From Folioceros fuciformis (Eukaryota): a stretch of 35,864 bases of DNA. The stretch is taken from positions 194,794 to 230,657 of the forward strand of contig JBNGIO010006235.1 in assembly GCA_049999805.1 (NCBI GenBank), in the 5' to 3' direction. This document shows positions 3,679 to 25,780 of this stretch, piece by piece (the first letter of the stretch is position 1; every line of letters starts with the position of its first letter). Position numbers and translations under genes: made by a program. The notes under the pieces are model-generated. The model had not been told where the DNA came from. It made no database searches and was given only the letters and a program-made list of their open reading frames with translations.

Positions 3679-4945
3679 TCAAATTGCACTGATTACACTG
3701 GAGAGGATCCGCCCTGCAGCCTGAAGACAAACCGATGAGCAAAAGACAGAGAAGTTCATGTCAGTACCGCATGCTTTTGCTCAATTGCCAGGCAGGTGAA
3801 ACCAAAAGGATGTGGAGAGGCAGGCCAATGGGAGGCAAGGGCTCGTAGATAGGAGAGGTACCCCGGACACGATGCCGGCCCAGTCTGTCGGATCGGACAT
3901 GTTGGCGAGGGAAGTGATCACATTTGCCCAGCTTGACGGTCTAAGCACCTCGGATCCTTTCTTCTTGACGTAGTAGACGTAGAAGGTGTATGGCCCCTTG
4001 GACATCTTGGAGCGAGCGAACTCGTAGGTAGGCATCTTCCTCAAAACCTCGCTTCCGAACGCCCCCATAGGTACCGTATCAGGCCGCCCCACTACCACCT
4101 CATCCACATCCTCCCTATTGTTGCAGACCACAATGACGCACTTTTTCCCGCTGGTGCCGACACCCAGGGTCGCGACGTGATACACGTTCTGAATGAGCCT
4201 GCCCCGTGCGGACTGGGAGTAGGTCACGAGGCCGTGCTCCTTGTACTCCTTGCAGTGGAGGGGGTACGCCCGCTGCGCCACCTGCTTCCCGAAATCCAGC
4301 CCCTTCACCGTCTCCGCCGGCTGGAAACCGTTGGAAGCCCATATTTTCAGCAAACCGGATCCTTGTTCCTCGCCCCCAGTGGCCACGGCCTGCCCATTCC
4401 CATCAACGGGACCTTCAAAAACAAAGCGAACGCACTCAAGGCCGTTGGGGAAGCGCAGCCGGGTGAACTCCACCCTATTAGCCGTCTCACTCCCGTGCAC
4501 GTAGGGCGGGAACACCAACCCATTGGGATCGGGAGATAGTCCCAAGTGGCGCACCATAGCCTGGAGCGGTCCCATGTTAGCTTGTGACTGCATCGCCATG
4601 GGAAAGGGCGGATCCTGAGCACCGACATCCTGCGCACCGTCGCGGACTCGCTGCCTTCCGGAGTAACTCATGACACACCTCCAGCTCCAGCAAACCGTCA
4701 ATCCGCTTCTATCAGCTGCAGGCGCGGCTTCTCTTCCTTAGGAGGGGCCTTCAAAGCAGCTCTGTCCGGTGTGCAGTGTGCAGTGCATGTTCTCAACATG
4801 TTCCACAACAGGTTTGAATTTCTTCACAATACCGGCCAATGCGTCGCAATGCTTGTGACACTGTGCCGCATTCTTTACCTCCTTTTATCAACTGATCCAA
4901 AAGCATACCAACAGTGTAGGGAACGAGACCTCCTGGATCTGCCAT
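3679..4945 (-). pseudogene. Probable RPW8/HeLo-like N-terminal helical domain fused to an unknown C-terminal domain; frameshifted in the N-terminal part
   Basis: ATG 4945 gives MADPGGLVPYTVGMLLDQLIKGGKECGTVSQALRRIGRYCEEI; after a frameshift KPVVEHVENM...CWSWRCVMSY, resembling the RPW8 pattern by eye. The 3781-4701 frame is open for about 300 codons. A predicted phase-0 GT-AG intron 3861-3721 adds the terminal exon AAGRILSSVISAI* (3720-3679). Confidence 0.5.
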
Positions 4946-5189
4946 AGCCCCCCAGCAGACCTCTGGAAGACCGAGTGCAACGCTAGCAACAGTCTTGTCC
5001 AAGCTAAGTGCACGGTACAGTATGAGCTCACCCAACTCATGATCGCCATCGTCGTCCTGATCCACAGCCACCCTGATAGTGAGCTCTACAGTATTTCAGA
5101 TTTCGTACACAGTACAACGAGTGGACCGGACTGATTGCCGAACCACTGCCTTTTGCAGAGTTCTATATTGCAGATTCGCATTACCATAC

Positions 5190-6600
5190 CTAGCGCACGT
5201 GGAGGCAGGCTGGAGGAGGCTAAGGATGTGCTCACCAGAGTGGAGGGCCTCGTTTTGGCTGACCATGTTACATTTGCCTGCCTTTTAAAGGCCTGTGCAA
5301 GGACTGGGGACTTACAGAATGGCAGCCATTTGCACTTACAGATTGCTGAAAGACAATCTAGTGTTGGGCACCTGCCTCGTTGACATGTATGCAAAATGTG
5401 GTCAAATGGAAGATGCACGCCGTGTTTTTGACAGCTTGGCCACCAAGAACGTGGTGACACGGACGGCCCTGTGTGCTGGGTATGCACGGCAAGGGCTCGA
5501 CCAAGAGGCCCTTGTCGTGTATGGACAAATGGAGGAGGAGGGGCTCATCCTGGCTGACCATGTAACATTCGCTTGCCTTCTCAAGGCCTGTGCAAGCACT
5601 GGTGCCTTACAGAAGGGCAAGCAGCTGCACTCGCAGATTGTGGAAAGAGGACTGCTGGATAACGTGGTGTTGGGCACCTGCCTGGTGGTCATGTACGCAA
5701 AATGTGGTGAAGTAGAAGATGCATGCCACATTTTTGACAGCATGAAAACAAAGAATGTGGTGACATGGAATGCCCTGATATCTGAGTATGGTAGTCTGTG
5801 ATGATGGTCAGAGAGCTGTAGCTTGTTTTCAGGACATGTTAGATGCGGGTATCCAATATGATGGTGGTACTTTCACTTGCCTTCTATCAGCATGCAGTCA
5901 TGAGGGACTTGTGCAGGAGGGTCTCAAACACTTTGATTCCATGGCTGAAGAGCATGGCATCCAACCCACTATTGAGCATTACACCTGCATGGTCGATCTT
6001 CTTGGGCGTGCAGGCCAGTTAGGTGAGGCTGAGAGCTTGCTAGTGTCATGTGAGGGCCAAAGTAATGTTGTGGTCTTGACGTCCTTGTTGAATGCGTGCA
6101 AAAATCACGGGGACAGAGAGAGGGCGATGTGGTGTTTTTGGAAGCATTGTCAGGTTGGACCCCCACGAGGCGCCTGCGTATGTGTTCATGGCCAATGCTT
6201 ACGCAGATGCAGGCAGGTGGACCGATGTACACAGAGTCGAAACACAGAGACACATAGCAGGAGCTCACAAGAAACCTGCGGTGGCGACCGTTGAGATGAA
6301 TAAGCAGGTACATAAGTTCCTGGTGGGAGAAAGGAGGGAGGCCTCATATTGCCCTTAAGGTAGAGAGCTCGAATGCACGGCTGAAGCTGGAAGGGGGCCA
6401 TGTACCTCACACAAAATTGGTGTTGAAGCCAGTTTCTGAGACGGAGAAGGAAGATGCGCCTTGTGGGCATGCTGAGAAGCTTGCCCTGGCGTTTGGTCTG
6501 TTGAAGACTCCGAGTGCGACCCCTCTGGTGGTAACGAAGAATCTACGGATGTGCAGTGACTGCCACAGTTCCACAGAGATCATGTCAAGGCTCATGTCAA
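5190..6600 (+). pseudogene. PLS-class PPR-E-DYW (KP-type) RNA-editing factor pseudogene, copy 1
   Basis: P/L/S repeats (DMYAKCG..ARRVFDSL..NVVT; DHVTFACLLKAC), TFTCLLSACSHEG / HYTCMVDLLGRAG, E domain, KKPAVATVEM (6269), CGHAEKLALAFGL (HAE at 6468), KNLRMCSDCH. Several frameshifts and internal deletions; truncated before the DYW C-terminus. Confidence 0.93.
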
Positions 6601-6764
6601 GATCATGTCATGCCAACAACCCATAAACAACAATACTATGCAATGAAGCTCCCTTAACAACTCTTTCCTTAAACTCGACCCTAATCAAAAGCCCTTTCTT
6701 GTATGATTTATGCAGATGCGAATGAGAAACCGTCTGTATGTCATTCGACACTCTCTTATGCTGC

Positions 6765-7025: not shown

Positions 7026-8619
7026 CACACACACTACGCGCCTCATTTGTGCGTGGCAAACAAGGAGAGGAAAACCACATCCGGTCGAAATGGTCCTGTT
7101 ATGGACAAGCTCTCGTCCTCTCCGATTTCAGCCTGTCTGGAACACAGGAGCAGAGATTGTCTGCTGGACATGGTAGGTCGTAGAAGAGAAATCCTTCTGC
7201 ACCTCTTCATTTGCGCATGATGCCATTGGCAATGCCCCGCTCATGGACTCATATGATATGTTCCTCAGTGGAGGGGTCAGGCATCTGGTTGGCGTGGTGG
7301 CAGTGCAAGACAGGCCAGGACGAATGGGCCGTTCTGTTGGAAGGCTGGCATCGGATGATGTTCGACATCTCTGCCCTACAACACCTCGACTCACAACACT
7401 GTGCCTTTGGCCCGGTACAAACTGGACATAACTCACACGGAAAGAGAAGTTGGCCAAGTTGTGTCACTTCTGCAGCCAGCCAGCGAGGGATGAGGATCTG
7501 CATCTCGGAGGCAACGCCTTACTATTCACCAAGCCGAAACGAGTCGCACAGCCTGGCTAATGAAACATCTGTCTACCAACACCGACACACGCCCCGTTCA
7601 CAATTCCACTTGACATCCCATCCTGAAGAATCCCGACAAGAACAAACTTACTTGAAATCAACCTGTGGATTAGGCAACTCGAGATTCATCGACGAGAATT
7701 TGCTCGAAATCTGCTTTTGGAGTTCTAGCCGTTACCCACGATAGCTCCACAAACCGAAACAGACCCAACACGGCACACAGCAGGTCGGTCTACTATTTCT
7801 TGAATCTGAACCGACCGAGAGATGTCAGATATGTCACTACAAGCAGCTCACGGTACAATGCAACACCATTTTCCACATGCGGTCGGTCTGGAGCTTGCCT
7901 TGCACACACACGTTTCGTCCGTGACCGCGAACTTTCATAGCCGCTGCTGATGGGAACAACAATATTATGTTGCCTACTGTTTTGTGAAGAGAACCGGGGC
8001 TTTATTCGAAAGGGAGCGACAAGGCCGTGCTCCAAACCAGGATACAGGACGCCGAGAAGACCGAACCCGAATCACTGGACAAGGCCCCTTCATGTGCTAC
8101 CAACCGTAATCCAGTTATCACAAGCCGTGAGCTACAGCTCCGTTCTGTCTGGTGCCACTGTGACATGAAGGCAGAGGCTACAGACGCGATTCCAGAGAGG
8201 CACATCCTGCCCCAGCTTTTGGCTGGTCGGGAAGGGAAGATGGGGCATACATCCTCACGCCGGTGTACAGAACATTGTAAAAACCAGAAGACCCCAAACT
8301 TGAACTTTGCCTCTTGAAACCAAGAGCTCCTAGCTGTGTACAAACACAGCACCTTCTTCCCTCCCTACACATAGCCTCCATGACCCATCATCTGTTCATC
8401 CACACAAGGTCCCTGTGAGAGGGTCTCTCTTGCCAAACAGGAATTAAGTAATGCATAGAAAGGGAGAAGTGAGAAGATCCTATTACAAGCAGTTCGATAC
8501 ACCAACAAACAGACAGTATGTAGCTAGAGACGATACCTGACACTTGATGGAAGGCATCACAGGCCCTGACCACCCGCTACTCACGCTAGCCAACCAGGCA
8601 TGTGTAGCGAATGGAATGG

Positions 8620-9399
8620 TTAAGACCAGTATAGCTTTCCAGTAATTGTGGTGACGACCTGGGGCCACTGCACTTCCTCCATGTTCGTGACCTCATTAAT
8701 CACTCTTGTAAGAATGCTCAACACATCTTCTGTTTGAGAGTGCTCAATGATGGCTTTCATGAAAGCTATGATGACGTTTGTGCCTTCCTTCACATCTCTC
8801 AAAGATATATCTCCAGGACTGGTGGAGAAAACGGTTAGGAAGTCTTTCACAGAAGACAGGAGTCGAACTCTCTTGCTGACTTGGCTTCCCTCAACGTCTG
8901 ACACATTGGCTTTGCTGCTGGTGGCAGGGTTGGCGGTGCTTGACCCCTGCGATTTCATGCTTTTCAGAAGATTGCCAGTGCCTCGACAAGCATTTACGAC
9001 AAGCACCTTAGGCTTGTTTGCCAAATATTTGCATTCAGCGATGGGCTTCAAAATATCATCTTCAACATAAAGCTTCTCGGCCTTGTCTTTTTCCCCTAAG
9101 AGCACGTACTCTCTTCCGTCTTCATCAGTCCCACCATGGGCGTTCATGCAAAACAGAAAGCAGTCGTCCTCTGCTAGGAAAGGGACTTCGGGCTTCACAG
9201 GCCGTCGCCCGTCCAGGAGAAGCAAAGCCCTGTAAGCGCTTTGAGTATCATGGCATGCCAAGGTTTCCCTGATGATGGCGCCCTTTCCCTTGCACGCCAG
9301 GTTTTCGACAGCTTGGTCACGAAGGATGTGGTAGCATGGAATGCCCTCATAGCTGGGTATGCGCGAATGGAGGAGGAGGGCCTCGTTTTGGCTGACCAT
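8620..9399 (-). CDS. Caspase-like cysteine protease domain (clan CD, C14A-like p20+p10); native 5' end apparently lost at ~9290
   Basis: Open, intronless frame. DCFLFCMNAHG (His 9136-9138), YLANKPKVLVVNACRG (Cys 8986-8988), S/T-rich linker, p10-like DFLTVFSTSPGDISLRDVKEGT..ILTRVINEV..QWPQVVTTITGKLYW*. Codons 9399-9291 are the antisense strand of the adjoining PPR fragment, so the ATG at 9399 is probably not native. Confidence 0.85.
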   Translation of the reverse strand: MVSQNEALLLHSRIPSYEGIPCYHILRDQAVENLACKGKGAIIRETLACHDTQSAYRALLLLDGRRPVKPEVPFLAEDDCFLFCMNAHGGTDEDGREYVLLGEKDKAEKLYVEDDILKPIAECKYLANKPKVLVVNACRGTGNLLKSMKSQGSSTANPATSSKANVSDVEGSQVSKRVRLLSSVKDFLTVFSTSPGDISLRDVKEGTNVIIAFMKAIIEHSQTEDVLSILTRVINEVTNMEEVQWPQVVTTITGKLYWS

Positions 9400-10230
9400 G
9401 TTACATTTGCCTGCCTTCTAAAGGCCTGTTCATACAGAATGGCAGCCATTTGCACTCACAGATTGCTGAAAGATAATCTAGTGTTGGGCACCTGCCTAGT
9501 TGACATGTATGCAAAATGTGGTCAAATGGAAGATGCACGCCGTGTTTTCGACAGCTTGGCCACCAAGAACGTGGTGACATGGACGGCCCTGTGTGCTGGG
9601 TATGCACAGCAAGGGCTCGGCCAAGAGGCCCTTCTCATGTAGGGACAAAATGGAGGAGGAGGGGCTCATCCTAGCTGACCACGTAACATTGGCTTGCCTT
9701 CTGAAGGCCTGTGGAAGCACTGGTGCCTTACAGAAGGGCAAGCAGCTGCACTCGCAGACTGTGGAAAGAAGACTGCTGGATAACGTGGTGTTGGGCACCT
9801 GCCTGGTGGACGTATGCAAAATGTGGTGAAGTAGAAGATGCACGCCACATGTTTGACAGCATGAAAACAAAGAATGTGGTGACATGGAATGCCCTGATAT
9901 CTGGCTGTGGTAGTTGTGATGATCATCTGGTCAGAGAGCAGTAGCTTGTTTTCAGGAGATGTTAGATGCGGGTATCCAGCCTGATGGTGGTACTTTCACT
10001 TGCCTTCTATCAGCATGTAGTCATGAGGGACTTGTGCAGGAGGGTCTCAAACATTTTGATTCCATGGCTGAACAGCATGGCATCAAACCCACTATTGAGC
10101 ATTACACCTGCATGGTCGATATTCTTGGGCGTGCAGGCCATTTAGGTGAGGCTGAGAGCTTGCTATTGTCATCTGAGGGCCGAAGTAATGTTGTTGTTTT
10201 GACGTGCTTGTTGAATGCGCGCAAAAGTCA
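9291..10230 (+). pseudogene. PLS-class PPR pseudogene, copy 2 (close duplicate of ~5240-6105)
   Basis: Long near-identical runs with copy 1, including shared lesions; extra stop near 9640; ends within the E domain. Confidence 0.92.
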
Positions 10231-10244
10231 AAATTTGAGAACAG

Positions 10245-10547
10245 GATATGGATGGCCTTAGGGTGATCCACCTCTCTCTCTCTTAAGCACTACCTTGATA
10301 GGTATGCGGGATTGAGTGTGGGCAAACCAAACCCCGCTCTCTCTCTGTGGAATGTCATGCTTCAGATCGATTCAAGTGGCAGAGCGTAACAACACCAACT
10401 GACCTTTTTCTGGGTACCCAACGACAATACGCCTGCAATATCTAAGAGATCCTTCTTTCTTTCATGGTGATGTTGTCTTGCACAGTTCGTAGCCTGTACA
10501 TACGTGGTCTACCTGGTTTAGTCTGTTGTCATAGCCTCTCCGTCGCT
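10245..10547 (+). repeat. PPR-family upstream module; copies at ~17180-17545 and partly ~13560-13795
   Basis: ggatatggatggccttagggtgatccacctctctc ... gtctgttgtcatagcctctccgtcgctgga shared with 17180-17545. About 10485-10660 is nearly identical to about 13620-13795. Confidence 0.88.
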
Positions 10548-10599
10548 GGAGCATTTGAGGACGGGGAGTAGGGTGAGTTTAGGGTAGAGAGGTGGTGGT

Positions 10600-11185
10600 G
10601 AGATTCCAAGGCTCCAACTGCATCAGAAAGCTTGCCCTGCTCACGTAACACCCCTTTCCCTCCCGTCCGCGTGCCATCCCGTCCGCGTGCCAGGTTTAGC
10701 ATGAACAGGAGAGCCCAACTTGGAAGACGAGACACAATGAGCCTGAGCCTGAGCCTCACCCATCAGAATATCGAATGGAACGAGCTGCTCATCAACCCAA
10801 GCTGGCTTGTGCATGCTGTTCAGCCACAGCACCTCGCCGGACACCTTACGTCGGAAGTCAGGCGAACGGGAGCTCTTCTTATCTCGTCTGTTGTCCCCAA
10901 CCTGGTAGGGTCCAGGAAAAATTCGTACCACAAGTGCTGCTCCTGCTCCTGACGGCGAGCATCCCTGGAAATCCCGTCCCCGCCACTCACACCTTCCCTG
11001 GGAAGGTGCAGTGCTGGGCTACGAGTCCTTGCACTGCTGCATCTGGAGGTCTTGTGTGCCAGGGGTTGCCACCCCAAGCTGTGATGCTTCGGAGCTCCTC
11101 CTAGAATTCGTGTACAAATAGCGTTTTGTTGGGCGCACAACGGGTCCATTTGATGCCATGCCGCTGTGGCCATCGTCCAGCGATG
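10600..11185 (-). pseudogene. Inverted 5' fragment of the same PPR gene family (upstream region and first codons)
   Basis: Minus strand encodes EQGKLSDAVGALES (cf. QQGKLSEAVGALDS at ~18020 +). Similar to the reverse complement of ~17540-18065 and directly similar to ~22460-23330. Confidence 0.8.
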
Positions 11186-12114
11186 GCCGTCGGAGGATGG
11201 ACATCACAGTAGAGTAGACTTTATGGCAGGTTGCCCAGGTGGTGATGGGAGATGGATGAGTGTAAGCCACCCATGTCGACCCATTTCTCTCAAACTTGGC
11301 CAGGGATGCAATCTAGGGACAACATTCAAGTTCACGCCCACAGGTAAGAAAAGCTATTGAATAGTAGGTGGTCTCTAAAGAGCAAAGCACACCGGAGCAG
11401 TTGGTGGCTTTGATGTGTGCCGAAACGGCAGCGCCGACCAGAGAGCAGACAGAACACCTTAGTGAGGGGGCAGACAAATTAATTGTACAAAGTCCCCTCT
11501 CCCCCGTTCGATTTTACGGCTCCCCTCCCGTCATGAATCCCCTCAAGGTTTATTGGACTGCAAAGGCCTTGCTTTTGCTACCTTCATTGACAAATTTTCC
11601 ATCACACTTCGGAGTGAGTGACAATGCACTCAATCAGTGAGTTAAGTCAGACGAGATGACAAGTTCTACATCTCACTCCAAAGCGAGTGGATGCTCAATT
11701 GCTCCCCTCGGCTGTAACGAAATTCATGACCGGACGAAAAAAAGAATGTTCACACCACGCAAGAGACGGGTACATGCCATTCCTGCTTCATTCTCCTGGA
11801 CACAACTCATGATTCTCTAGAACATCTCGCACAACTGCACAACTACTCTACTGTGTGCTTCACAAGGTGCACCAACATGCAGATGGCAAAGTTTCTTTTG
11901 GGCAGTGCGTCATCATACCATCTGGTGGCTGGTTTAGGGTGGTTGACAAAACGAGGCAGTCACTCACAAAATGCAGGGGATCAAACCATCCAAGCTTTCT
12001 CACTGACGACATAGCTTCTCTTCGACGTCTTAGCCCCTTGACGGTTGTCCGAGGCTCGACAACCCTTCGTGATAACACACTTTTGGCTTTTCTGCCGCAT
12101 TACTGCGTCCCGTG

Positions 12115-12181
12115 ATGAAACCCATCAATGAATACAGTTACATACCTGGCAAACAAGCCCAAAGTGTCTACCATTAATGTT
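12115..12181 (+). pseudogene. Short remnant of a second caspase-like paralog
   Basis: MKPINEY-(frameshift)-YLANKPKVSTIN aligns with LKPIAECKYLANKPKVLVVN of the 8620-9399 ORF. YLANKPKV is identical in protein but uses several different codons. Confidence 0.6.
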
Positions 12182-13894
12182 CTGGACATGGCTTTCTTCA
12201 TACAAATACAACACCATATCAGTGTCAGCAGCTCGAACCCTGCATCTCATCACAAAGTACTGCTACTAACCCTGATGCCGCAGTCAAGAGGAAGCTATTT
12301 ACATCTCCGGACCTTTCACCACCCACAAATCCATCCTACCCAGGCACAAGAGGAAACATCAGGGATCTCAGAAGCCTGGCTGCACCCTTCAAACTTTGAG
12401 CTACGTACAGCTGTAGGTTCAAGCACCCATCTTGAAAGCTAAACACTATGTCCTACACCCCGTTGAAGCTTGCTGGCTTGCAAGTTGTAGGGGCAGGAAA
12501 GACAAACATAAGCCTAGGTATATTGCAAAACACCGCAGCAGCTCAAACCCAGCATCCCCAAAACACCCGGCGGCCACTCTAACCAAACACACGGCATCAT
12601 AACTCCTGCGGCAGGGAAGGGAACAAAGCACGAGTGCCTAGGGTAACCGGACTTTTATGTTCGGCTAAGGAGCTTCATATGCTTCACGGGACATTACGCA
12701 GTGAGATATGGGGTCTATATGAGTCCTTCATGAGCAGGTGGTGAGGATACGCACGTAATTATTTCAATACACGTAAGCTAAGCGCATGGCTAAGCTAAGT
12801 CGTAATCACAGTTGGCGCACGATGCCAGACTACCCTTCCATCTAACACCAACCCATGTACCCAACCTACCACTTTGCTCTTCACAGGAGCAAGGACTTGA
12901 AACTTCATACTGTGCTGACCCCTTTGGTCACCACTCCACTTTTTGACGGGAGCAAGCTTGCGCTCGAAACGTTTCGTGGTCTCCACTGTTTCGTCGGTCG
13001 TTCTTGGTGGATCATGGGTGACATCTTGCTGTGGTGGCATATGCAGCAAGCTGCCTGCTTGTGGCTACTTGTGACAAGAGCCAGACACAGCTGTTGGTGC
13101 CCTCTGTTTCGTTCGCGATTCATGGTCATGTTTCATTTCCAGAGTCTGAAGATTTATAGCCACCTAGGTTACATATGCACCCCTCCTTGACGCGTCTCCT
13201 GAGTGCAAACGTATAGTCCTCCTTGTCAGACAGACAGTTGTAAGTCCCTGACGTAAGTGGTTGATCCTTCAGCAGGCCGTGCTTCACTGCATGACTCCAA
13301 CAAAAAGACTGAAGTGGAAAGACCTGCTCCAGCAAAGCTGCTATCTGCAGTGCCCTAAACCTAGCTTCTGAGCAGCACCTTCACGGCTCACTAGAGTGAG
13401 GTCGAGTAATATCAAGGGCGGCTTGCGCCGTGGAGGCTGTAAATAGCGTTTGGGCTGATGTACAGCTCCCGAATACGATGGTTGCTGCGCAGCATTCCGG
13501 CCAGGGCGTCTGCCAGGCGCGCCGCCGGCCAGGGCGTCTGCCAGGCGCGCCGCCTTTTCCTGGATACCCAACGACAATCCGCCTGCGCTAACTATCCTGC
13601 TATCTTTCATGTCTTGCCCAGTTCGTAGCCTGTCCATACGTGGGCTACCTGGTTTAGTCTGTTGTCATAGCCTCTCCGTCGCTGGAGCATTTGAGGACGG
13701 GGAGTAGGGTGAGTTTAGGGTAGAGAGGTGGGGGTGAGATTCCAGGGCTCCACCGGCATCAGAAAGCTTGCCCTGCTCACGTAACACCCCTTTCCGCTCC
13801 CGACCAAACACAGATCGTCCTTGTGTTGCAGGTCCTCTCCCCGTTCGATTTTACGGCTCCCCTCCCGTCATGAATCTCCGGTACACCAGATTTT

Positions 13895-14817: not shown

Positions 14818-14862
14818 CACGCTTCCTTATGCATAACTACGTGACTGTCCTTATTATTCAGG

Positions 14863-16553
14863 ATGGAGCAGCTCAACCGGGACATTGCTGCCGCGAATGA
14901 ACAGAGCATCGCTCTTGAGAAGGACTTGCTCAACACCACAGACCCGCAGCGAAGAATCCTTTTAGAAAAGGTATGGGAGAGGTCGGTGGAGAAGTGGCAG
15001 GCGCTGCAGGAGATTGCTGCAAAGGAAAGGCAGCTAAACCAGGAGATTGCTGCAAAGGAACGGCAGCTAAACCAGGAGATTGCTGCAAAGGGATGGCAGC
15101 TAAACCAGGAGATTGCAGCAGCAAAGGAAAGGCAGCTAAACCAGGGGATTGCTGTCTTAACTGGGGAGATTGCTGCCGCGAATGAACACATTACCGCTCT
15201 TGCGAAGGACTTGCTCAACGCCACAGACCCGCAGCAAAGAACCCTTTTGAAAAAGGTATGGGAGAGGTCGTTGGAGAGCAAAGAGCGCCTCGTGGCGAAC
15301 CGGCAGGCGCTGCATGATAGCTTTCTGGCCAAGCAGTCCATCCCAGGTCAGTGCACTCCGCTAAGGGAAGGTGTCATCTGCATCATGCTATCATATGTTT
15401 GTTTGCAGACTTGTTAGTATTTGAATGGCAGACATGCTTGTAATTGGAGCTCCGAGGTTCTTATCTTGATGTAGGCGATGTCTTGAGTACAAGAAAAACA
15501 GAGGAGCAGCTCCAAGCTATATTTGATATTGTGCAAGAGGAGAGAAAGGAAAAGTCAACCGTCTGCATAAGCAGCGTGAAGACTGAAACATGGTTGGCAG
15601 TGCAAAGCACTGCGAAGCTATCTACCCTTGTAGTTGAGGATCTGCCAGCAACTTCACCAAAAGAAGCGGTGGTTGCATTTGACTGGGATGGCAGCGTCGA
15701 ACGTGCCCAGGCTGACAGGTGTCGTTATGATATCAATCTTGTAATCTTGTAGGTGTGTTATAATCTTGGATTTGTTTATGGCTGACCGTCTTGTGCTAAT
15801 GAGATGTTCTGTGTATGAACAGGTACATAGCCCATCTCCGGCAGATCATCAACCTTGATAACAGGAAGATTGATTGGGTGGACGCAAATCATTTTCCACA
15901 GTTATTGAGTTATCCTGGAGTAGAGACGCTTGGCCGGAACTTCAGGGGTACCACTAACGTTTTGATAGCTGACACTTCAGTAATTAGGGCCCGGCAACCA
16001 TGGCTGGGCATGCGGGTCTTATTTGAGCTCAAGAAAAGGGTTCGAAATTCTCATATCAACCAGGCACAAATTTCCTTGTTGTTGGCCAACCTACTTTCTC
16101 CGGAATCCAAACCAGTAACGGTAAGATCTGAGTCTGAACCACCATCTTTTGCACTTAACATTCAGGGGTCTTAAAATTTTGGTTGGGTTGTGGCAGGTGC
16201 TCACAGACCTCTGTGATGAATGGCATCTGTTCTGGTTGGATGGCGCAACAATCAACCAGCACGTTTTTTTATCCAGAGAACGGGCTGTAAGTTTTATCGA
16301 AGATGTTTTGGCTGGGCGTTTGGAAGCAAGCGAGGAACTTGACCGTACTGCTGTCCCGGTATCGAAAAGGCGCAAGGTATTCAACAGATTGGTATCGACT
16401 CCGGAATTAGAGAACACACTCACTGAAGATCAATTAGAGAGTCTGGAAGGTGTGTTAGCTCCAAGTGAGATCACACAGATGAGAGCTCATCGTTTCATCC
16501 GCCAACTCGAAACTCTCCAAAATTGGAAGCAAGTCCCAGATATAGATACGTAG
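14863..16553 (+). CDS. Crinkler (CRN)-like protein: coiled-coil repeat header plus C-terminal PD-(D/E)xK REase-fold domain; 4 exons, 460 aa
   Basis: Exons 14863-15346, 15475-15718, 15823-16120 and 16197-16553 join in frame through GT-AG introns of 128, 104 and 76 bp. Motifs FDWD..E, FRGTTNVLI, LFELKK, QAQISLLLANLL, PVTVLTDLCDEWHLFW resemble oomycete/fungal CRN C-termini. Gene model is firm; the family call is by eye. Confidence 0.8.
15008..15150 (+). repeat. Coding minisatellite, about 4 x 33 bp (QEIAAKERQLN)
   Basis: caggagattgctgcaaagga..ggcagctaaac repeated directly; one unit has a 3-nt insertion. Confidence 0.95.
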
Positions 16554-16846: not shown

Positions 16847-17207
16847 TCCTGTGAGAAAACCCCGGGACAACCAGGCGCTTTCCTTTAACGGCCACACTTT
16901 GATGTTATCCCTTGTCCCTATGCTCCGAGCGGCTGAGCATGCAGGTGGGTCTATCACCACTACTCTGCAATGGCTATGGCCCTGATCAGATCAGCCTGAC
17001 ATGGGGTATTCAAGGCCAGGATGCTTGTCAGCGAAAGCAGGTACAGCTCTCACAGTTTCTAGGTGTACTGTGTTCACAAGTTTGTCCTGATGGTCGCTAT
17101 CAAGCATTGGTTCGGATACAAGAAGGAGTACTAGTACGTCTTTTCTTATCATGGGCTGTCATGCAAGGTGTTGCCCAGAAGGATATGGATGGCCTTAGGG
17201 TGATCCA

Positions 17208-17322
17208 CCTCTCTCTCTCTCTCTCTCTCTCTCGCAAGCACTACCGTGATAGCTATGCGGAATTGAGTGTGTGCACACCAACCCCCCCCCCCCCTCCCCC
17301 TCTCTCTCTCTCTCTCTCTCTC
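17208..17322. repeat. (CT)n microsatellites and poly-C tract
   Basis: Directly visible; the paralogous copy at ~10270-10345 has much shorter tracts. Confidence 0.95.
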
Positions 17323-17995
17323 TGTGGAATGTCATGCTTCAGATCGATTCAAGTAGCAGAGCGTAACAACACCAACTGACTTCTATCTCCATCTATTTAC
17401 CTTTTTCTCGGTACCCAACGACAATCCGCCTGCACTAGCTATCCTTCTTTCTTCCATGGTGATGTTGTCTTGCACAGTTCGTAGTCTGTACGTACATACG
17501 TGGGCTACCTAGTTTAGTCTGTTGTCATAGCCTCTCCGTCGCTGGACGATGGCCACAATGTATGGCAACCAGACCCGTTGTGCATCCAACAAACCCCTGT
17601 CTGTGTGTGTACAGGAGTTGTACGAGGCCACAGCGTAGGGAGGCAACCCCTGGCAAACACGGCTTCCAAGTGCAGAGCTGTAAGAAGCCCAGCATTTCCA
17701 CCTCCCGGAAAGCGTAGGGACGGCATTTCCAGCGATGATCGTCGCCTGAGCACTTGTGGCAATAGCTTTTTTCTGCAACCCTGCTATGTGGTGGGACAAC
17801 AGACGAGATGAGATCAGCTCCCGGTCGCCTCACTTCCGGCGGGCGAGGTCTCGTTGCCGAACAGCATATCCAAGCCAGGTTGGGTTGATGTGAAGCTTGT
17901 TTCCTTGGATATGCAGATGGGTTTTGGTGCCTCTCCTTCTGACTCCAGCTCTGGGGATAAGCCTAAACCTGGGAGGCGTGCAGGATCGTTCGGGA

Positions 17996-18420
17996 ATGGC
18001 TAGAACCGTGAGCGTCTCGTGTCAGCAGGGCAAACTTTCTGAGGCAGTTGGAGCCCTGGATTCTCTGGCGCAGACAGATACTGTCAACTCTCAGTCTCTG
18101 TCATGCACTTTGCTAAAACTGTGTACAGCTAACAAGGATGTGGTTGTGGGGCGACGATTGCATCATTCTGTCTCAAGCTTGGGCACGAAGTCGAATGCAT
18201 ACTTGGGGAACCATATGTTGCGCACGTGGAGGCAGGCAGGAGGAGGCTAAGGATGTGCTCACCAGAGTGGGGAAACCGGATGCCTGTATGTGCTCTTCCC
18301 ATAATCTCCGAATACTCTCAGCATGGGAAGCCCCCCGAAGCCATACAACTGTACCATGAGATGCGCAGGTCATGAGTGAAGCCGGATTCTCACGTCTTTG
18401 TGGCTGCCCTTCAAGCTTGT
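17996..18420 (+). pseudogene. 5' fragment of a PLS-class PPR gene
   Basis: MARTVSVSCQQGKLSEAVGALDSLAQ..LLKLCTANKDVVVGRRLH..YLGNHMLR / EEAKDVLTRVGKPDA / KPDSHVFVAALQAC, with frameshifts; paralogous to 22010-22560 (-). Confidence 0.88.
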
Positions 18421-19719: not shown

Positions 19720-22560
19720 TCGGTACCCATCTCTCACAACAATGTCTCTCCCTTCGAGCCTTGACATGATCTCCGTGGAACTGTGGCAGTCACTGCACAT
19801 GCGTGGATTCTTCGTTACCACCAAGAGGTGTGTGCCACTCGGAGTGTTCAACAGTCCAAACGCGAGAGCTAGCTTCTCCGCATGACCACAAAGCGCATCT
19901 TCCTTTTCCTTCTTCTCACGCACTGCCTTCAACACCAGCTTTGTGTGTGACGAACATGCCCTCCCTCCTGTTTCAGCCGTGCATTCCTACTTTCCGCTTT
20001 CACTGCAAGATCCATCCTCTCTCCTTTCCCCCCGACCTCAAATCTGTGCACTTCCTCTTAAGTCACCTCTACGCTAGCCATTGCGGGGTTTTTGTTAGCT
20101 CCTGCTGCCATTCTCCATCTTTCAACCCTGTGTCTACATCGGTCCACCTACGTGCATCTGCGTAGGCATTGGCCATGAGCACATAGGTGGATGCCTAAAC
20201 TCCTTAGGTTCCAGCCTGACAACACTTTCAAAACACCACATCGCCCTCTCCAAATCCCCGTGACTTTTGCAGGCATTCAACGAAGACCTCAGGCCCACGA
20301 CATTCCTCTGACCCTCTAGTGACAACACCAACTTCTCAGCCTCATCCAAATGACCCGCACGCCCAACAAGGTAAGGTCAATCATGCAATTGAAGTGCTCA
20401 ATAGAATAGTAGGTATGATGCCATACTGGTCAGACATGGAAGCAAAGTGCTCGCGACCCTCGTAAACTAGACCACCGAGACTGCAAGCGACTACAAGGCA
20501 AGAAAAAGTAGCCCCATCGGGCTGAACACCGGCAACTAACATGTCGTCAAAACAACTTAACGCTCTACGCCAATCATCACATATACCATACCCAGATATC
20601 ATGGCATCCCATGTCACCACAGTCTTGATGTTCATGCTGTCAAAAACCTGGCGTGCGTCTTCCAGTTCACCACATTTCGCATACATGTCCACCAGGCAGT
20701 TGCCCAACACTACCACGTCCAGCAGTCCTTTTTCCACGATCTGTGAGTGCAGCTGCCTGCTGCCCCTTTTGCAAGGCACCAGTGCTTCCACAGGGCCTTC
20801 AGAAGGCAACAAAAAAGTCACATGGTCACCCAAAATAAGGCCTTCTTGCTCCATTCGGCCGTACAGAATAAGCGCCTCATGTCCGAGCCCTTGCCGAGCA
20901 TACCCGGCAATCAGGGCATTCCATGTCACCACATGCTTCATGGCCAAGCTGCCAAACACCTGCTGTGCGTTTTCCACTTCACCACATTTTGCATACATGT
21001 CCACCAGGCAGTTGCCCAACACCACATTTTCCAGTAGACCACTTTTGACAAGCTCTGAGGGCAGCTGCCTGCCCATCTCTATGGCGCAACAGGCATCGAG
21101 AAGGCAAGCAAAAGTAACATCATTAGCTATGACGAGGCCCTCCTGCCCCACTTGTCCATACAAAAACAAGCCCCTCAATTCCCAGACCTTGCTGTGCATA
21201 CCCAGCAATCAGCGCCGTCTATGTCACCACATCCTTAGCGGCCACTCTGTCAAAAAACACGGCGTGCATGTTCCACTTCACCACATTTTTGTATACATGT
21301 CCACCAGGCAGTGGCCCAGCACTACGTTATCCAGCAGTCCTCTTTCGACTATCAGTGAGTGCAGCTGCCTGCCCTTCTGTAAGGCACCACTGCTTCCACA
21401 GGCTTTCAGAAGGCAGGCAAAAGTAAAAGTGACATGGTCAGCCGAACTGATGCCCTCCTGCTCCATTACTACTCCATAAGACAGCAAACGCCTCATGTCC
21501 GAGCCCTTGGTCAGCATACCCAGCAATTACGGCATTCCATGTCACCACATCCTCTGTGGCCAAGCTGTCAAAACCCTGTCGTGTATTATCGAGTTCACCA
21601 CATTTTGCATACATGTCCACCCAGCACTACTCTATCCCAGCAGCCCTCTTTCAACGATCAGCGAGTGCAACTGCCTGCCCTTCCGTAAGGCACCCGTGGT
21701 CACAAGGCAAGCGAATGTAACATGGTTACCCAGAATCAGCTCATCCTGCTCCAACTGCCCATACAGAGCAAGGGCAGAATGTCCTAGCCCTTGCTCCGCA
21801 TATCCAGATATCAGGGCATTCCATGTCACCACACTCTTTGTGTTCATGCTGTCAAAACGTTGGTGTGCATCTTTCATTTCACCACATTTTGCATGCCCAG
21901 ATATCATGGTATTCCATGTCACTACATCCTCTGTGGCCATACTGTCAAAAACCCTGGCGTGCATCCTTCAGTTCGCCACATTTCGCATACATGTCCACCA
22001 GGCACTCACCTACGAACAGGGGTAGTGGGAATGCCACTGGAAAATCTCACAATGCACTTTCCTGCCAGATTCCAAGTCGGTAGCAAATCCACACGCTTGA
22101 AGGACAGCTACAAAGACGTGACCATTTGGCCTGACTCCTGAACGTCGCATCTTGTGGTACGGTTGCATAGCCTCCTTAGCTTTGCCATGCTTGGTGTGTG
22201 CGGAGATTATGGAATGCCACATGAAGGCATCTAGTTTGCCCACCCTGGTGAACACGTCCATTGCCTCCTCTAGTCGACCTAGACATCCATACATGCGTAA
22301 GATAACGTTCCCCAAGCATGAATTCCACTCATACCCGAGTTTGAGAGTGAGGTGATGTACTCGTCGACCCACAACTAAATCCTTGTTGGCTGCGCACAGG
22401 TTCAGCACAGTGTGAGACAGCGACAGAGAAATTGCAGAATGTGATTGCGCCAGAGATTCCCGGGTTTGAACGCCCTCAGCAAGCTTTCCCTGCTGACATA
22501 ACATGCTGACGGTTGAAGCCATTTCGAATCGTGCACGCCTGCCAGGTTCATGCTTATCTG
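19720..22560 (-). pseudogene. Near full-length PLS-class PPR-E-DYW (KP-type) pseudogene, copy 3
   Basis: N-terminus MASTVSMLCQQGKL, many P-L-S repeats, E domain, KNPAMASVEV, EDALCGHAEKLALAFGLLNTP..KNPRMCSDCHSSTEIMSRLEGRDIVVRDGYR, then truncated. Many frameshifts and stops. Confidence 0.93.
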
Positions 22561-23961
22561 GAGAGGTAAACTTGGAAGGAGAGGCACCATAACCCATGTG
22601 CACAACATCCCAGGAAACGAGCTGCTCATCAACACAAGCTAGCTTGAACAGGTTCATGCCTCAACCACAGAACCTCACCACAGCCCTTACGTCGGAAGTC
22701 AGGCGAACGGGAGCTCTTCTTACCCCGGCTGTTATCTTGCCAGATGGTAGGTGTTGCCACAAGTTTTCCTGCTCCTGGCGACGACCGTCGCCGGATATGT
22801 CATTCACCCCCCCACGCTTCGTATCGGCAGTGGAAGTGATGGGCCTCGTATAGCGCTACACATGGAGGCCATTCGCGATTCTGCACGCCTGACAGATTCA
22901 GGCTTAATCCCATGTGCTCGGATCGGAAGGAGAGGGACCACGGCCCACGGGCATCTCCAACGACACTAGCTGCATGCTGTTTAACCACAGCACCTCGCCG
23001 TATCCCTTATGCCGGAAGTGAGGCGATCGGGATCCCCTGTGAGCTCGTTTGTTGTCCCACCCCACGGTGGGGTCCTCAACACCTGTTGCCACATCTGATC
23101 CTGCTCCAAGCGATGACCACCATCGATGTTGGAAAACCCATCCCGGTCCCGACCCACACATTTGATCACTAGTGGAAGACCTTGGGTCCTTACACTGCTG
23201 CACCTGGCCGCTTCGTTGGCCAGAGGTTGAGTCCCAAGGTTGAGCTGAGCGGGAGCTCCAAACAGCATCCCCGCACACATAGCACATAGCACATAGCACA
23301 TGGTTGGCTCCATAACGGGTCCAGTTGCCATACTGGGGCCATCGTTCGAGGACCACAATCGGAAGATGAAGCTAATATATAGCAGACTATGCCACACCTC
23401 CCACCTACTCCTAATAACACCAGTGTGTTCGATGAAGTCACCAAATCCACCTGCCTTTCGCGTCGTACCCTAAACTCTACTCGACCCAAGGCCAAAGGAG
23501 TCCTCAAGTGTGGCATACCAAAAGACGATAGAGAGTCCCAACCTTTTCCTTCACTGTTTTGAAAAAACAAAAAGGACAATTGCTTCCTGCTCGTGGATGA
23601 ATTTTGGCGACAGGAACTACGTACATCAGCATCGTCAAACCTCGGGACGTGACCAATTGGACGGACCAATCGGGCGTTTTTCTCCTCTTCAACATTATGC
23701 ATGGTAGCATCCCGTTATTCTGCCTTCATCGCTTTAGCACTGTCCGCTATGCACTGAAACTACGTTGTCGAATGTGTGTTGCGAGATTCAAGCTATTCCC
23801 ATGCGCTCAGAACTCGCCGCACACTCAGCCGAGGGTAACGGAGTCCAGAGGACCGCTCCGCGTCATTGTCCGGAGGAGGCCAAGTGCTAGTGTCCGGTGT
23901 TTGATGTTTACCTCTTGCTTTTGCTTCTAACTGCGTGGCTTGCCCCACCCCGTAAGGGGGT

Positions 23962-25780
23962 GTTAGTTGGTGGTATCAGAGAGCAAAGGTTGAAGCGTCC
24001 ATAACTAGTACGCTAGTTTGAGTTAGTTGGTGGTATCAGAGAGCAAAGGTTGAAGCGTCCATAACTAGTACGCTAGTTTGAGATGGCAGACCCCGTTGAG
24101 CCTAGCAAAGCAGAGAGAGTACGGCGCAGGAGGGAGAAAGCTCCGCTTGCCGAAGCCGTTGTGGAAGAGCCACATACACATCCGCAAGTTCTGGGAACGG
24201 CGGAGGAAGGAGCCCCGGGGCAGAGGACCAACACCATGATACAGGACCAGCTCCACAAGATCATGATGAGATTAGATGCCATGGATCAAGAGATCAAAGG
24301 CAGGAAGAAGCTCAAAGAAGTTGAGCATGAAGAGTTGGAACTTGAACCTGAGAGCAATGGTGCAAGAAAGTCCAAGAAGTTGAAGTTGAGCATGCAGGCC
24401 CCAAAGAGTTCGAAGAGTTACAAGGGCGAACGTGACGGAGAGAAAATCAGTTCTTGGTTTTTCTCTTTATAAGTGTACCTCGAGTCATGCGGAGTTTCGC
24501 AAGACGAGTACCTAAAGCACGTCACGAATTTCCTGGAGGTAAAGCACATCACGAATTTCTTGGAGGATTATGCTCTTACTTGGTGGAGAACTTACGTAGA
24601 GAGCATAAGGCAAGGCAAGGCAATCGCAGAGCAACTATTTTCACATGGGCAGACTTCAAGGAAGCGCTGCAACTTCGTTTCCAACCCGCTAATGCAGCGA
24701 GTTTGGCGCGAAGAATGCTCGATATTGTCAAGCATACTTGAACTTTGCGGGAGTATGTGACTATGTTCAGCTCAGTGGTATTGTAGTGTCCTGAAATGCA
24801 TGAGCAAGATAAACTCCATAAGTTTACTATCGGACTTTAACAGTCCATAAGTTTACTATCGGACTTTAACAGGTGGGCTCATGAGAGAGTCATGCGAACA
24901 AATCCTCAAACGCTGCAAGAAGCCATGGCAGCAGCAGATGCGATACCAAACATATACGATGAGGAAGCACCAATGTCAAGAGGAAGGTATCCAAGATCTC
25001 AAGGTAGATCCAGAGGTAGAGGACAAGCCACCGCCACTGGGAATAGTGGTTTGAATGAAACTGCTGGCAGAGGAAGAACTAGAGGAGATAATAAAGGTTG
25101 TGGAAGAGATAATAAAGGTTGTGGAAGACGACAAACAATGCCTACTTCTGGCGTGTGCTGTACAGCTGTGGAGAGCAAGGACATTTTGCTAGAAATTGTC
25201 CACATGCTGGAAATTCTAAGTTGAATTTGGTAGCCGCCAATCCGTCTGTTTCAAGACTCGGGATTCAAGAAGTTCCTGAAGAGCCCAAATGACGCCAGGA
25301 GCCACATGTTGTGAAAACATGTGGTGAGTCGTCTAGTGTCAAGGATGACACTATTTCCAGGGAAGGTGGAGCCCTGATGTATGTATGTGGGAAGATGAAT
25401 GGCTCAGAAGTAGAGTTGTTATTAGATTCTGCATGTATGTGGGAAGATGAATGGCTCAGAAGTAGAGTTGTTATTAGATTTTGCAGCCACCCACAATTTC
25501 ATATCTCCTTGTAAGGCAAGAGAGCTTGGTCTAGAGTGGGCAGAAACTTCCACGCCATATGGAATCAAGCAGGCTAAGGGACTCTCCAATTTTTGGGCGA
25601 ATTGCATGGAGTAAAGCTGCAAATAGAGGCGTGGAAATGAAATGTGAATTTCACAGTTGTGGATATGGATGATCATGATATATCTTAGGCCTGGAGTGGA
25701 TGAGATCCAATGAAATGCCTATGGATGTGAAGTCATGCACCGTTGAGATATACAGGAAGCGCAAGGTGGGTTGTGCTAGT
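23962..25780 (+). mobile_element. Ty3/gypsy LTR retrotransposon remnant (PBS, gag, aspartic protease; RT/RH/IN absent)
   Basis: PBS, gag from ATG 24083 (ALTWWR, TWADFKEALQLRF, PQTLQEAM), CCHC knuckle C/YSCGEQGHFARNCP (~25156-25203), protease LLDS / AATHNFIS and ILGLEWM. Stops and frameshifts throughout; LTR limits not resolved. Confidence 0.88.
23971..23981 (+). promoter_or_regulatory. tRNA-iMet primer-binding site (duplicated at 24031-24041)
   Basis: TGGTATCAGAG matches the canonical plant iMet PBS and lies about 100 bp upstream of the gag ATG. Confidence 0.85.

Follow-up and report, generated by a model that had tools for sequence, protein, structure and literature searches.

A caspase-type reading frame at the locus

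We analyzed a stretch of 35,864 nucleotides (nt) from the hornwort Folioceros fuciformis (GenBank assembly GCA_049999805.1, contig JBNGIO010006235.1, positions 194,794 to 230,657 of the forward strand), referred to here as the window. The minus strand of the window contains, at positions 8620-9417, an open reading frame (ORF) that encodes most of a caspase-type peptidase domain. A preceding sequence-only reading of this DNA had described an open frame of about 220 codons with an animal-type caspase domain. The frame is indeed open from stop to stop; however, it comprises 265 codons, it lies on the minus strand, and its upstream continuation is not related to caspases. All motifs quoted in that reading were recovered from the minus-strand translation, where they follow one another from the N to the C terminus as CFLFCMNAHGG, LANKPKVLVVNACRGTG, KANVSDVEGS, DFLTVFSTSPGDISLRDVKEGTNV, SILTRV, VQWPQVV and GKLYWS-stop. 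The stretch around the cysteine reads L-A-N-K-P-K-V-L-V-V-N-A-C-R-G, and the stretch within the p10-like part reads D-F-L-T-V-F-S-T-S-P-G-D-I-S-L-R-D-V-K-E-G-T. The proposed His-Gly/Cys dyad thus corresponds to H94 (N-A-H-G-G) and C144 (N-A-C-R-G), and the arginine thought to be retained in an S-x-R motif is R207 in S-L-R. In the numbering of caspase-1, the S1 pocket involves R179 (the arginine after strand 1), Q283 (the glutamine before the cysteine) and R341 (the p10 arginine). The window copy keeps the p10 arginine and carries an asparagine at the place of the glutamine, and its R179-type position is cut away by a truncation of the domain. The features of the locus are listed in Table 1. 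The linker between the p20-like and p10-like parts, including the aspartate of N-V-S-D-V that the sequence-only reading had suggested as a possible processing site, showed no conservation across the alignments of the clade described below.

Table 1. Features of the caspase-type locus and related sequences in the window (clade rows refer to the 20-row alignment described in the text)
Feature	Positions	Strand	Basis
Peptidase_C14, C14A-like caspase-type domain, strand 3 to end of p10 (residues 82-265)	8623..9174	-	Pfam, clade profile, AlphaFold/Foldseek
Stop codon TAA right after GKLYWS, where the caspase domain of the relatives ends	8620..8622	-	sequence, alignment
Codon of catalytic-type His, H94 in N-A-H-G-G	9136..9138	-	sequence; His in 17/20 clade rows
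Codon of catalytic-type Cys, C144 in V-N-A-C-R-G	8986..8988	-	sequence; Cys in 19/20 clade rows
Codon of p10 Arg, R207 in S-L-R, R341-type S1 pocket residue	8797..8799	-	sequence; Arg in 17/20 clade rows
Variable linker between p20-like and p10-like parts, residues ~147-190, with N-V-S-D-V	8848..8979	-	predicted disordered; predicted local distance difference test (pLDDT) <50 at model residues 86-115
Junction stretch, residues 61-81, AYRALLLLDGRRPVKPEVPFL; fits neither the caspase profile nor PPR antisense	9175..9237	-	profile, tblastn
Upstream part of the frame, PPR repeat antisense, with the sole upstream in-frame ATG (9399-9397)	9238..9417	-	tblastn of residues 1-60
3' flank of the ORF; raised summed contig depth as over the ORF	8170..8619	-	depth bins ~100-185 vs ~12-30 single-copy
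PPR gene fragment, pseudogene piece broken over several frames	9375..10230	+	92.3% copy of 5242-6107 over 872 nt (blastn); Pfam PPR
Neighbouring PLS/DYW-type PPR gene copy; it or a relative is the source of 9375-10230	5183..6626	+	blastn, Pfam

The domain is caspase-type and not metacaspase-like

The Pfam family PF00656 matched residues 83-263 of the ORF with an E value of 1.6e-19 (70.9 bits against a cut-off of 21.4) and was covered from position 66 to position 233 of 233, a match well beyond what chance would produce; a scan of the ORF with NCBIfam returned no family. When the ORF was compared with the sequences in the PDB by phmmer, 108 distinct chains were matched at E<=0.01, and the best 60 of the 108 were all caspases, with Dronc (3.2e-12) at the top followed by caspase-8, -7, -3 and -9. 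A profile built from ten family members matched 238 chains, of which the best 60 were exclusively caspase-3, -6, -7 and -8, at E values of ~1e-33 to 1e-30 (best 7.6e-33) and with nearly the whole domain aligned.

Structure prediction pointed in the same direction. The AlphaFold model of the window piece reached a mean pLDDT of 75.4 and a predicted template modelling score of 0.71, with a disordered linker, and a Foldseek search of the PDB with this model placed only caspases at ranks 1-50 (best caspase-8, 3.1e-10). The model of a full-length relative from the liverwort Riccia fluitans, with a pLDDT of ~80-95 over most of the domain, matched only caspases and CED-3 among the matches listed, at target-normalised template modelling (TM) scores of up to 0.79. 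In a protein language-model atlas, the window piece lay beside three chordate caspase clusters (0.95-0.93), which we treat as a lead only. No metacaspase or paracaspase was present among the matches listed for the ORF by sequence or profile or for the window and Riccia models by fold. A best match to a metacaspase, a paracaspase or a protein outside C14, the outcome that would have spoken against the animal-type (C14A-like) identity proposed from the sequence, did not occur in the profile or structure comparison, and this identity is borne out by Pfam, by the PDB sequence and profile matches and by the fold matches. We also compared the family with the pattern expected of C14B proteins, namely an acidic S1 pocket, the metacaspase Cys motif and a C14B protein as the best match, and found instead N-A-C-R-G and an Arg/Asn/Arg pocket. 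Collectively, these data show that the domain is caspase-type (C14A-like) and not metacaspase-like.

The window copy lacks the N-terminal part of the domain

About 65 positions at the beginning of the domain are missing from the window copy, and with them strands 1 and 2, helix 1 and the Arg-x-Gly loop that bears the R179-type arginine. When aligned with a profile built from 17 full-length relatives, the ORF matched positions 110-292 of 311 from its residue 82 onward (153 bits, E 1e-48). A complete catalytic domain with six strands spans positions 1-233 of the Pfam profile; the window copy, which spans 66-233, does not contain one. The window contains 1115 further six-frame ORFs with a minimum length of 20 residues, and none of them supplied the missing N-terminal part (all at E>=2.1). 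The absence of the first strand and of the R179-equivalent region, already claimed from the sequence, is therefore confirmed by Pfam, by the clade profile and by the six-frame search. A weak tblastn and hidden Markov model match at 12112-12439 (+), with E values from 0.02 to 2, was judged to be a chance match, and Pfam gave no C14 match there.

A tblastn search with residues 1-60 of the ORF found the antisense strand of further PPR copies within the window. No ATG occurs between ORF residues 7 and 91, and the sole in-frame ATG upstream of the domain is located at 9399. A candidate splice acceptor (ttacag/G) was predicted from the sequence at ~9233.

The same truncation was observed in two ORFs from the transcriptome of another hornwort, Nothoceros aenigmaticus (P0002 and P0005), which are assigned to different Trinity genes and both begin with a Met ~13 residues before the C-F-x-C-F strand. 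On the full-length profile, the match starts at position 107 in P0002, 109 in P0005 and 110 in the window copy (of 311), and P0005 covers positions 67-233 of PF00656, compared with 66-233 in the window copy. The window copy has no ATG at the place where these hornwort ORFs begin. Given that the window copy, P0002 and P0005 (32-41% identical to the window copy) share the start of the domain, they may represent a maintained hornwort short form or share an exon boundary. As both hornwort transcript ORFs carry the same truncation, intact paralogs may not exist in hornworts. Full-length relatives exist within the clade.

Relatives of the window copy form a clade with bryophyte members

An exhaustive HMMER scan of 1.84 billion representative proteins yielded 300 proteins at E<=1e-3 and 10 at <=1e-10, with none at <=1e-30; the best of them was 41% identical to the query. 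Organism names were looked up for 30 relatives, and 18 more matches were checked. Twelve carry an organism name: two transcript ORFs of N. aenigmaticus (EukProt), one protein of R. fluitans and nine proteins of animals (Mytilus, Ladona, Lamellibrachia, Patella, Haliotis, Dreissena, Batillaria, Arctopsyche and Eudromia). The Riccia protein, R1flu_002472 (P0034), is encoded on a 56-Mb contig and bears the UniRef label 'Caspase family p20 domain-containing'.

Phylogenetic trees were computed in two ways. The FastTree analysis included 151 of the 167 stored proteins; the 16 proteins whose best single domain covered fewer than 150 profile positions were dropped, among them P0161-P0163 and P0165, which are close relatives of P0010. 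In this unrooted tree, the window ORF fell into a clade of 20 rows with a Shimodaira-Hasegawa (SH)-like support of 98. The same clade was recovered, with a support of 98 in the SH-like approximate likelihood ratio test, by a quick IQ-TREE search under LG+C20+F+G4 with posterior mean site frequencies; this tree was likewise unrooted, had no C14B outgroup and comprised 58 rows, that is, the 20 clade rows and 38 others picked to span the first tree. Within the clade, the window copy, the Riccia protein and the two Nothoceros rows grouped weakly (support 82 in the IQ-TREE search). The clade members that carry an organism name (3/20) are all bryophytes and the other 17 come from Logan, JGI/IMG or ENA assemblies, while all eight animal-named rows in the trees lie outside the clade. 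The plant caspase-like family postulated in the sequence-only reading was thereby corroborated by members from a hornwort transcriptome and a liverwort chromosome within a supported clade. As that reading had proposed, the family may have been either acquired horizontally or inherited.

Searches of other kinds added no further members. A word-based search with the ORF for proteins of similar length produced 357 candidates, none at E<=1e-3. A search with the clade alignment for longer, fused proteins revealed only a bird DED-caspase and no fused form, which is weak evidence. Pattern searches of IMG/VR viral contigs (21 matches) and of prokaryote genome contigs (12 matches) gave no confirmed match; since two short peptide patterns were used, this is weak evidence against a viral or a bacterial source. 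On metagenome contigs, 25 loci were retrieved, none of which was a close relative (at most 33% identity over >100 residues); 19 of the 25 scored higher with an insect caspase than with the clade member P0003, and the loci were set aside as ordinary caspases.

The residues of the catalytic set are largely conserved in the clade. The R179-type arginine is found in 16 of the 17 full-length rows of the 20-row alignment and is missing from all three hornwort-type rows, so that the full-length relatives of the truncated window copy do retain it. The catalytic Cys is present in 19/20 rows, and the asparagine that had been noted at the glutamine place of QACRG in the window copy occurs in 18/20. The catalytic His and the p10 arginine are each conserved in 17/20 rows. 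The His is replaced by Tyr in P0012, P0094 and P0160, in which the arginine after the Cys is replaced by Ile, Ser and Thr and the p10 arginine is also lost. From its residues, this subclade probably consists of pseudo-proteases, and the joint loss of these arginines from the rows with Tyr is what one would expect to see if selection acts on the catalytic set in the other rows. The window copy itself retains 31 of the 38 well-conserved clade columns that it covers; all seven changes are conservative, and this number is within the range of other divergent members.

In the nine clade proteins scanned with Pfam, PF00656 was the only family found, and none of the nine contained a CARD or DED prodomain. 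Full-length coverage of PF00656 was seen in P0008, P0164 and P0007 (1-233), in P0034 (1-232) and in P0018 (1-231). Residues 1-160 of the Riccia protein P0034 constitute an N-terminal extension with no Pfam family and low model confidence. N-terminal extensions were also observed in P0008, P0018 and P0164.

The locus lies in plant-type sequence and probably has close paralogous copies

The setting of the ORF in a land-plant genome, as assumed in the sequence-only reading, is supported by the PLS/DYW PPR genes and the eIF5B-like gene in the window and by a host-like codon composition. The caspase frame has a GC content of 0.484 and a GC content at third codon positions (GC3) of 0.547, compared with a GC3 of 0.49-0.57 in the neighboring PPR and eIF5B-like frames, and no composition step was seen at the caspase locus within the window. 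Furthermore, two DNA sequencing runs labelled as the same organism (X1 and X2) contain the segments 8498-8765 and 8811-9059 without any difference. At position 9094, contigs that are at least 90% alike carry another letter, four of them in X1, five in X2 and three in a third run, X3 (three runs from two studies). The summed contig depth over 8170-9340 amounts to ~100-600, compared with ~12-30 in single-copy bins, although depth does not equal copy number. We read the contigs and their depth only as a sign that several close paralogous copies of the caspase-type locus exist. As the 3' flank shows the same raised depth as the ORF, it is probably part of the same repeated unit.

The label of run X3 as RNA is a guess, and because its depth follows that of the DNA runs in most bins, it is uninformative on expression. 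One X3 contig in the region 7312-7812 (-) joins position 7469 to position 7652 and leaves out 182 nt, a segment that starts with GT and ends with AG when read on the minus strand. This contig reflects either the splicing of a transcript immediately downstream of the caspase frame or an insertion/deletion difference between accessions.

Genomic context of the locus

The caspase-type ORF lies among PPR genes and their fragments. Antisense frames of the PPR genes in the window are free of stop codons over long distances, and this accounts for the openness of the caspase frame in its upstream part. A family of dispersed repeats occupies 10243-11186 and recurs at 13553-13805 and 17180-18065 (77-88% identity, one copy inverted). 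It displays a very high summed depth in the DNA runs (850-1700 at 10675-11008) and probably represents what is left of a transposable element; a protein of such an element was not found. Since the caspase piece adjoins a PPR fragment and then these repeats, it sits in a mosaic of fragments.

The PLS-type PPR genes at 20230-22660 (-) and 5183-6626 (+) are in inverted orientation and are 75-88% alike over many repeat units. The frame 6300-6626 ends in a KNLRMCSDCHS tail of the DYW type. The eIF5B-like gene at 30803-35864 (-) encodes GTP_EFTU in frame 32706-35864 and IF-2 and GTP_EFTU_D4 in 30803-31411, and its nearest cluster in the atlas is mostly Streptophyta. The part of this gene that encodes the N terminus contains a tandem array with a period of ~141 nt (34848-35699). 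A frame at 3781-4737 (-) encodes a DUF7851 domain (1.5e-15) within a GC-rich stretch; its GC3 of 0.705 is above that of the other frames checked. At 23962-24081, a 60-nt unit is perfectly duplicated in tandem (two copies with 100% identity). The open frame 14845-15417 (+) includes 33-nt tandem repeats (14974-15156) and a duplicate spaced by 285 nt (14879-14992 / 15164-15277), and its Pfam matches are weak and below the cut-off.

Interpretation of the window copy

We favor, with moderate confidence, the interpretation that the locus is a truncated and probably inactive copy of a recently duplicated bryophyte caspase-type family, fused upstream to PPR antisense sequence. According to this interpretation, the window copy would be one member of a small, recently duplicated C14A-like gene family in a land plant, and the copy itself would be a pseudogene or a chimeric ORF and not a working protease. 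It is most likely inactive because its domain starts at strand 3, so that helix 1, strands 1-2 and one of the two arginines of the S1 pocket are absent, and because it has no start codon of the hornwort type, is fused to the antisense of a PPR pseudogene and is embedded in a repeat mosaic. The window copy is useful in that it points to the family and to the short form that hornworts have in common.

Several observations weigh against this interpretation. The frame is fully open over its 265 codons and the domain is well preserved, unlike what would be expected of a long-dead copy. Two distinct hornwort ORFs are truncated alike and begin with Met at one and the same alignment column, which suggests a maintained short gene type; if the short form is maintained, the window copy could be functional in some way. 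The in-frame ATG at 9399 has a fair context and could yield a chimeric protein of 259 residues. Runs X1 and X2 may be the assembled sample itself and, therefore, would not provide independent support. The caspase/PPR junction (9175-9375) is bridged by no contig among the matches listed, so the join is given by the assembly alone. It should also be noted that the inactivity of the window copy is inferred, that the copy may not be silent, and that the acidic P1 specificity of the family is predicted from pocket residues only, with Asn in place of Gln.

The most serious of the other explanations, although we consider it rather unlikely, is that a hornwort-specific short caspase-like protein, which naturally lacks strands 1-2, is encoded here by a working gene or by the final exon of such a gene. 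This protein might be a reduced protease, might serve as a decoy or regulator by pairing with full-length relatives via the p10 strand, or might be completed by an N-terminal piece encoded elsewhere. The common Met column of the two Nothoceros ORFs, which belong to different Trinity genes, is what a short gene type would produce, as are the nearly coincident profile starts (107 and 109, compared with 110) and the parallel Pfam coverage of P0005 and the window copy. The open frame, with 31 of 38 conserved columns and the His, the Cys and the p10 arginine all kept, fits this explanation as well, and the candidate acceptor at ~9233 or the ATG at 9399 could supply a beginning. However, the window copy lacks an ATG precisely at the conserved start place, the sequence upstream is antisense to a PPR pseudogene fragment, and no N-terminal exon was found within 26 kb upstream; moreover, the central sheet would be two strands short and one S1 arginine would be missing. 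Another explanation, which overlaps with the truncated-copy interpretation and which we regard as improbable, holds that the caspase-like piece is a gene fragment without a function of its own that was captured and multiplied by a transposable element of the Pack-type or Helitron-like kind. The mosaic of caspase fragment, PPR fragment and dispersed repeats (10243-11186, recurring at 13553-13805 and 17180-18065), the presence in the DNA runs of several contigs with a similarity of 90% or more and the raised summed depth over 8170-9340 are all consistent with capture. On the other hand, no terminal inverted repeats, long terminal repeats or ORFs for transposase or reverse transcriptase were found around the locus, the depth figure is not a copy number, and an independent capture cannot explain why the transcripts of another hornwort genus share the start of the domain.

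Two further explanations concern the identity and the origin of the ORF. It is very improbable that the ORF is foreign DNA, from an animal or a protist living on the plant, that was misassembled onto plant sequence. Bryophyte samples often carry small animals, and the junction at 9175-9375 is unbridged among the contigs listed; nevertheless, GC3 and composition resemble those of the neighboring plant genes, the clade is set apart from the named animal sequences in the trees, and a liverwort member resides on a 56-Mb contig. In addition, DNA runs that are labelled with the same organism and stem from two studies contain exact pieces of the locus and several paralogous contigs. Since PF00656 spans both subfamilies of C14, the Pfam match by itself would also suit a diverged metacaspase, paracaspase or other C14B protein of the ordinary plant kind. 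We give this explanation practically no weight: no C14B protein is among the best 60 PDB sequences by phmmer or by profile or among the top 50 folds of the two models, and the ORF combines the N-A-C-R-G motif with a p10 S-x-R after it and basic pocket residues.

A caspase-type family in bryophytes

Irrespective of the state of the window copy, the bryophyte caspase-type family very likely exists as an integrated part of plant genomes, given the agreement of three independent kinds of source. On the basis of the Arg/Asn/Arg pocket and the conserved dyad, the full-length members would be predicted to be cysteine endopeptidases which, like caspases, cleave after acidic residues. More tentatively, bryophytes, or at least hornworts and one liverwort, may possess a lineage of true C14A-like proteases of their own, with a basic Arg/Asn/Arg S1 pocket and cleavage after Asp or Glu, together with a maintained hornwort short form that would serve as a regulator or decoy or be completed in trans. 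If this were true, early-diverging land plants would be an exception to the view that caspases are missing from plants.

Asp-directed, caspase-like activities are seen in plant cell death and are ascribed to unrelated proteases. A family of the caspase type that is integrated in the genomes of bryophytes would represent a directly testable candidate in transformable species. It would also add a data point to the question of whether proteases of the caspase type existed early in eukaryotic evolution and were subsequently lost or were moved by gene transfer. Reviews and recent papers (PMC10896300, PMC9104976 and PMC12521494) describe caspases as restricted to animals or as non-existent in plants, which are said to have only metacaspases. 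Our literature search found no paper on C14A-type caspases in plants, although gene-family or horizontal gene transfer tables of bryophyte genome papers could still list the family. Mentions of 'caspase' in two papers on bryophyte NLRs concern CARD domains and bacterial NLRs and not the caspase-type family. The claim that the family is undescribed in plants is consequently upheld as far as describing papers are concerned, but an automatic UniRef label exists for the Riccia protein. What is new is the caspase fold with its motifs in a new group of hosts, the Asn in place of Gln and the short form in hornworts.

Comparison with known systems

Plant metacaspases and paracaspases (C14B) belong to the same clan and Pfam family as C14A proteases and share the chemistry of the His/Cys dyad; they cleave after Arg or Lys and have an acidic S1 pocket and a different Cys motif. 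A portion of PMC10565124 deals with C14B proteins in relation to caspases; there, caspase-type homologues outside animals are described for Reticulomyxa filosa and some bacteria and as absent in plants and fungi. The family presented here resembles these homologues, compared by description only, in having a C14 caspase-type domain outside animals.

Animal caspases (C14A: caspase-3, -6, -7, -8 and -9, Dronc and CED-3) provided the best sequence, profile and fold matches among the matches listed. The order of parts is the same, with a p20-like part, a variable linker and a p10-like part, and the likeness extends to the His-Gly, the x-A-C-R-G, the arginine of the p10 S-x-R and the C-terminal Q...L..LY[WF] ending; in full-length clade members, the arginine of R-x-G that follows strand 1 is retained as well. 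In contrast, the clade is only ~20-30% identical to animal caspases, has Asn for the Gln of QACRG (18/20), carries no CARD or DED in the nine proteins scanned and is separate from the named animal sequences in the trees, and the domain is missing its first ~65 positions in the window copy and in the two hornwort ORFs.

The Riccia protein R1flu_002472 shares with the window copy its clade, its location on a plant chromosome, A-H-G, N-A-C-R, an S-x-R in p10 (S-W-R) and a model with the caspase fold. It differs in being of full length (Pfam 1-232), with an N-terminal extension of ~160 residues, in its identity of only ~28-29% to the window piece and in its long branch in the trees. The closest named relatives are the Nothoceros proteins EukProt EP00246 P009469 and P000030 (P0002 and P0005; 32-41% identity). 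Both have a Met start of their own where the window copy has no ATG, and P0002 contains a long charged insert in p20; nevertheless, the Nothoceros ORFs and the window copy agree in the start of the domain, in its motifs and in its end point.

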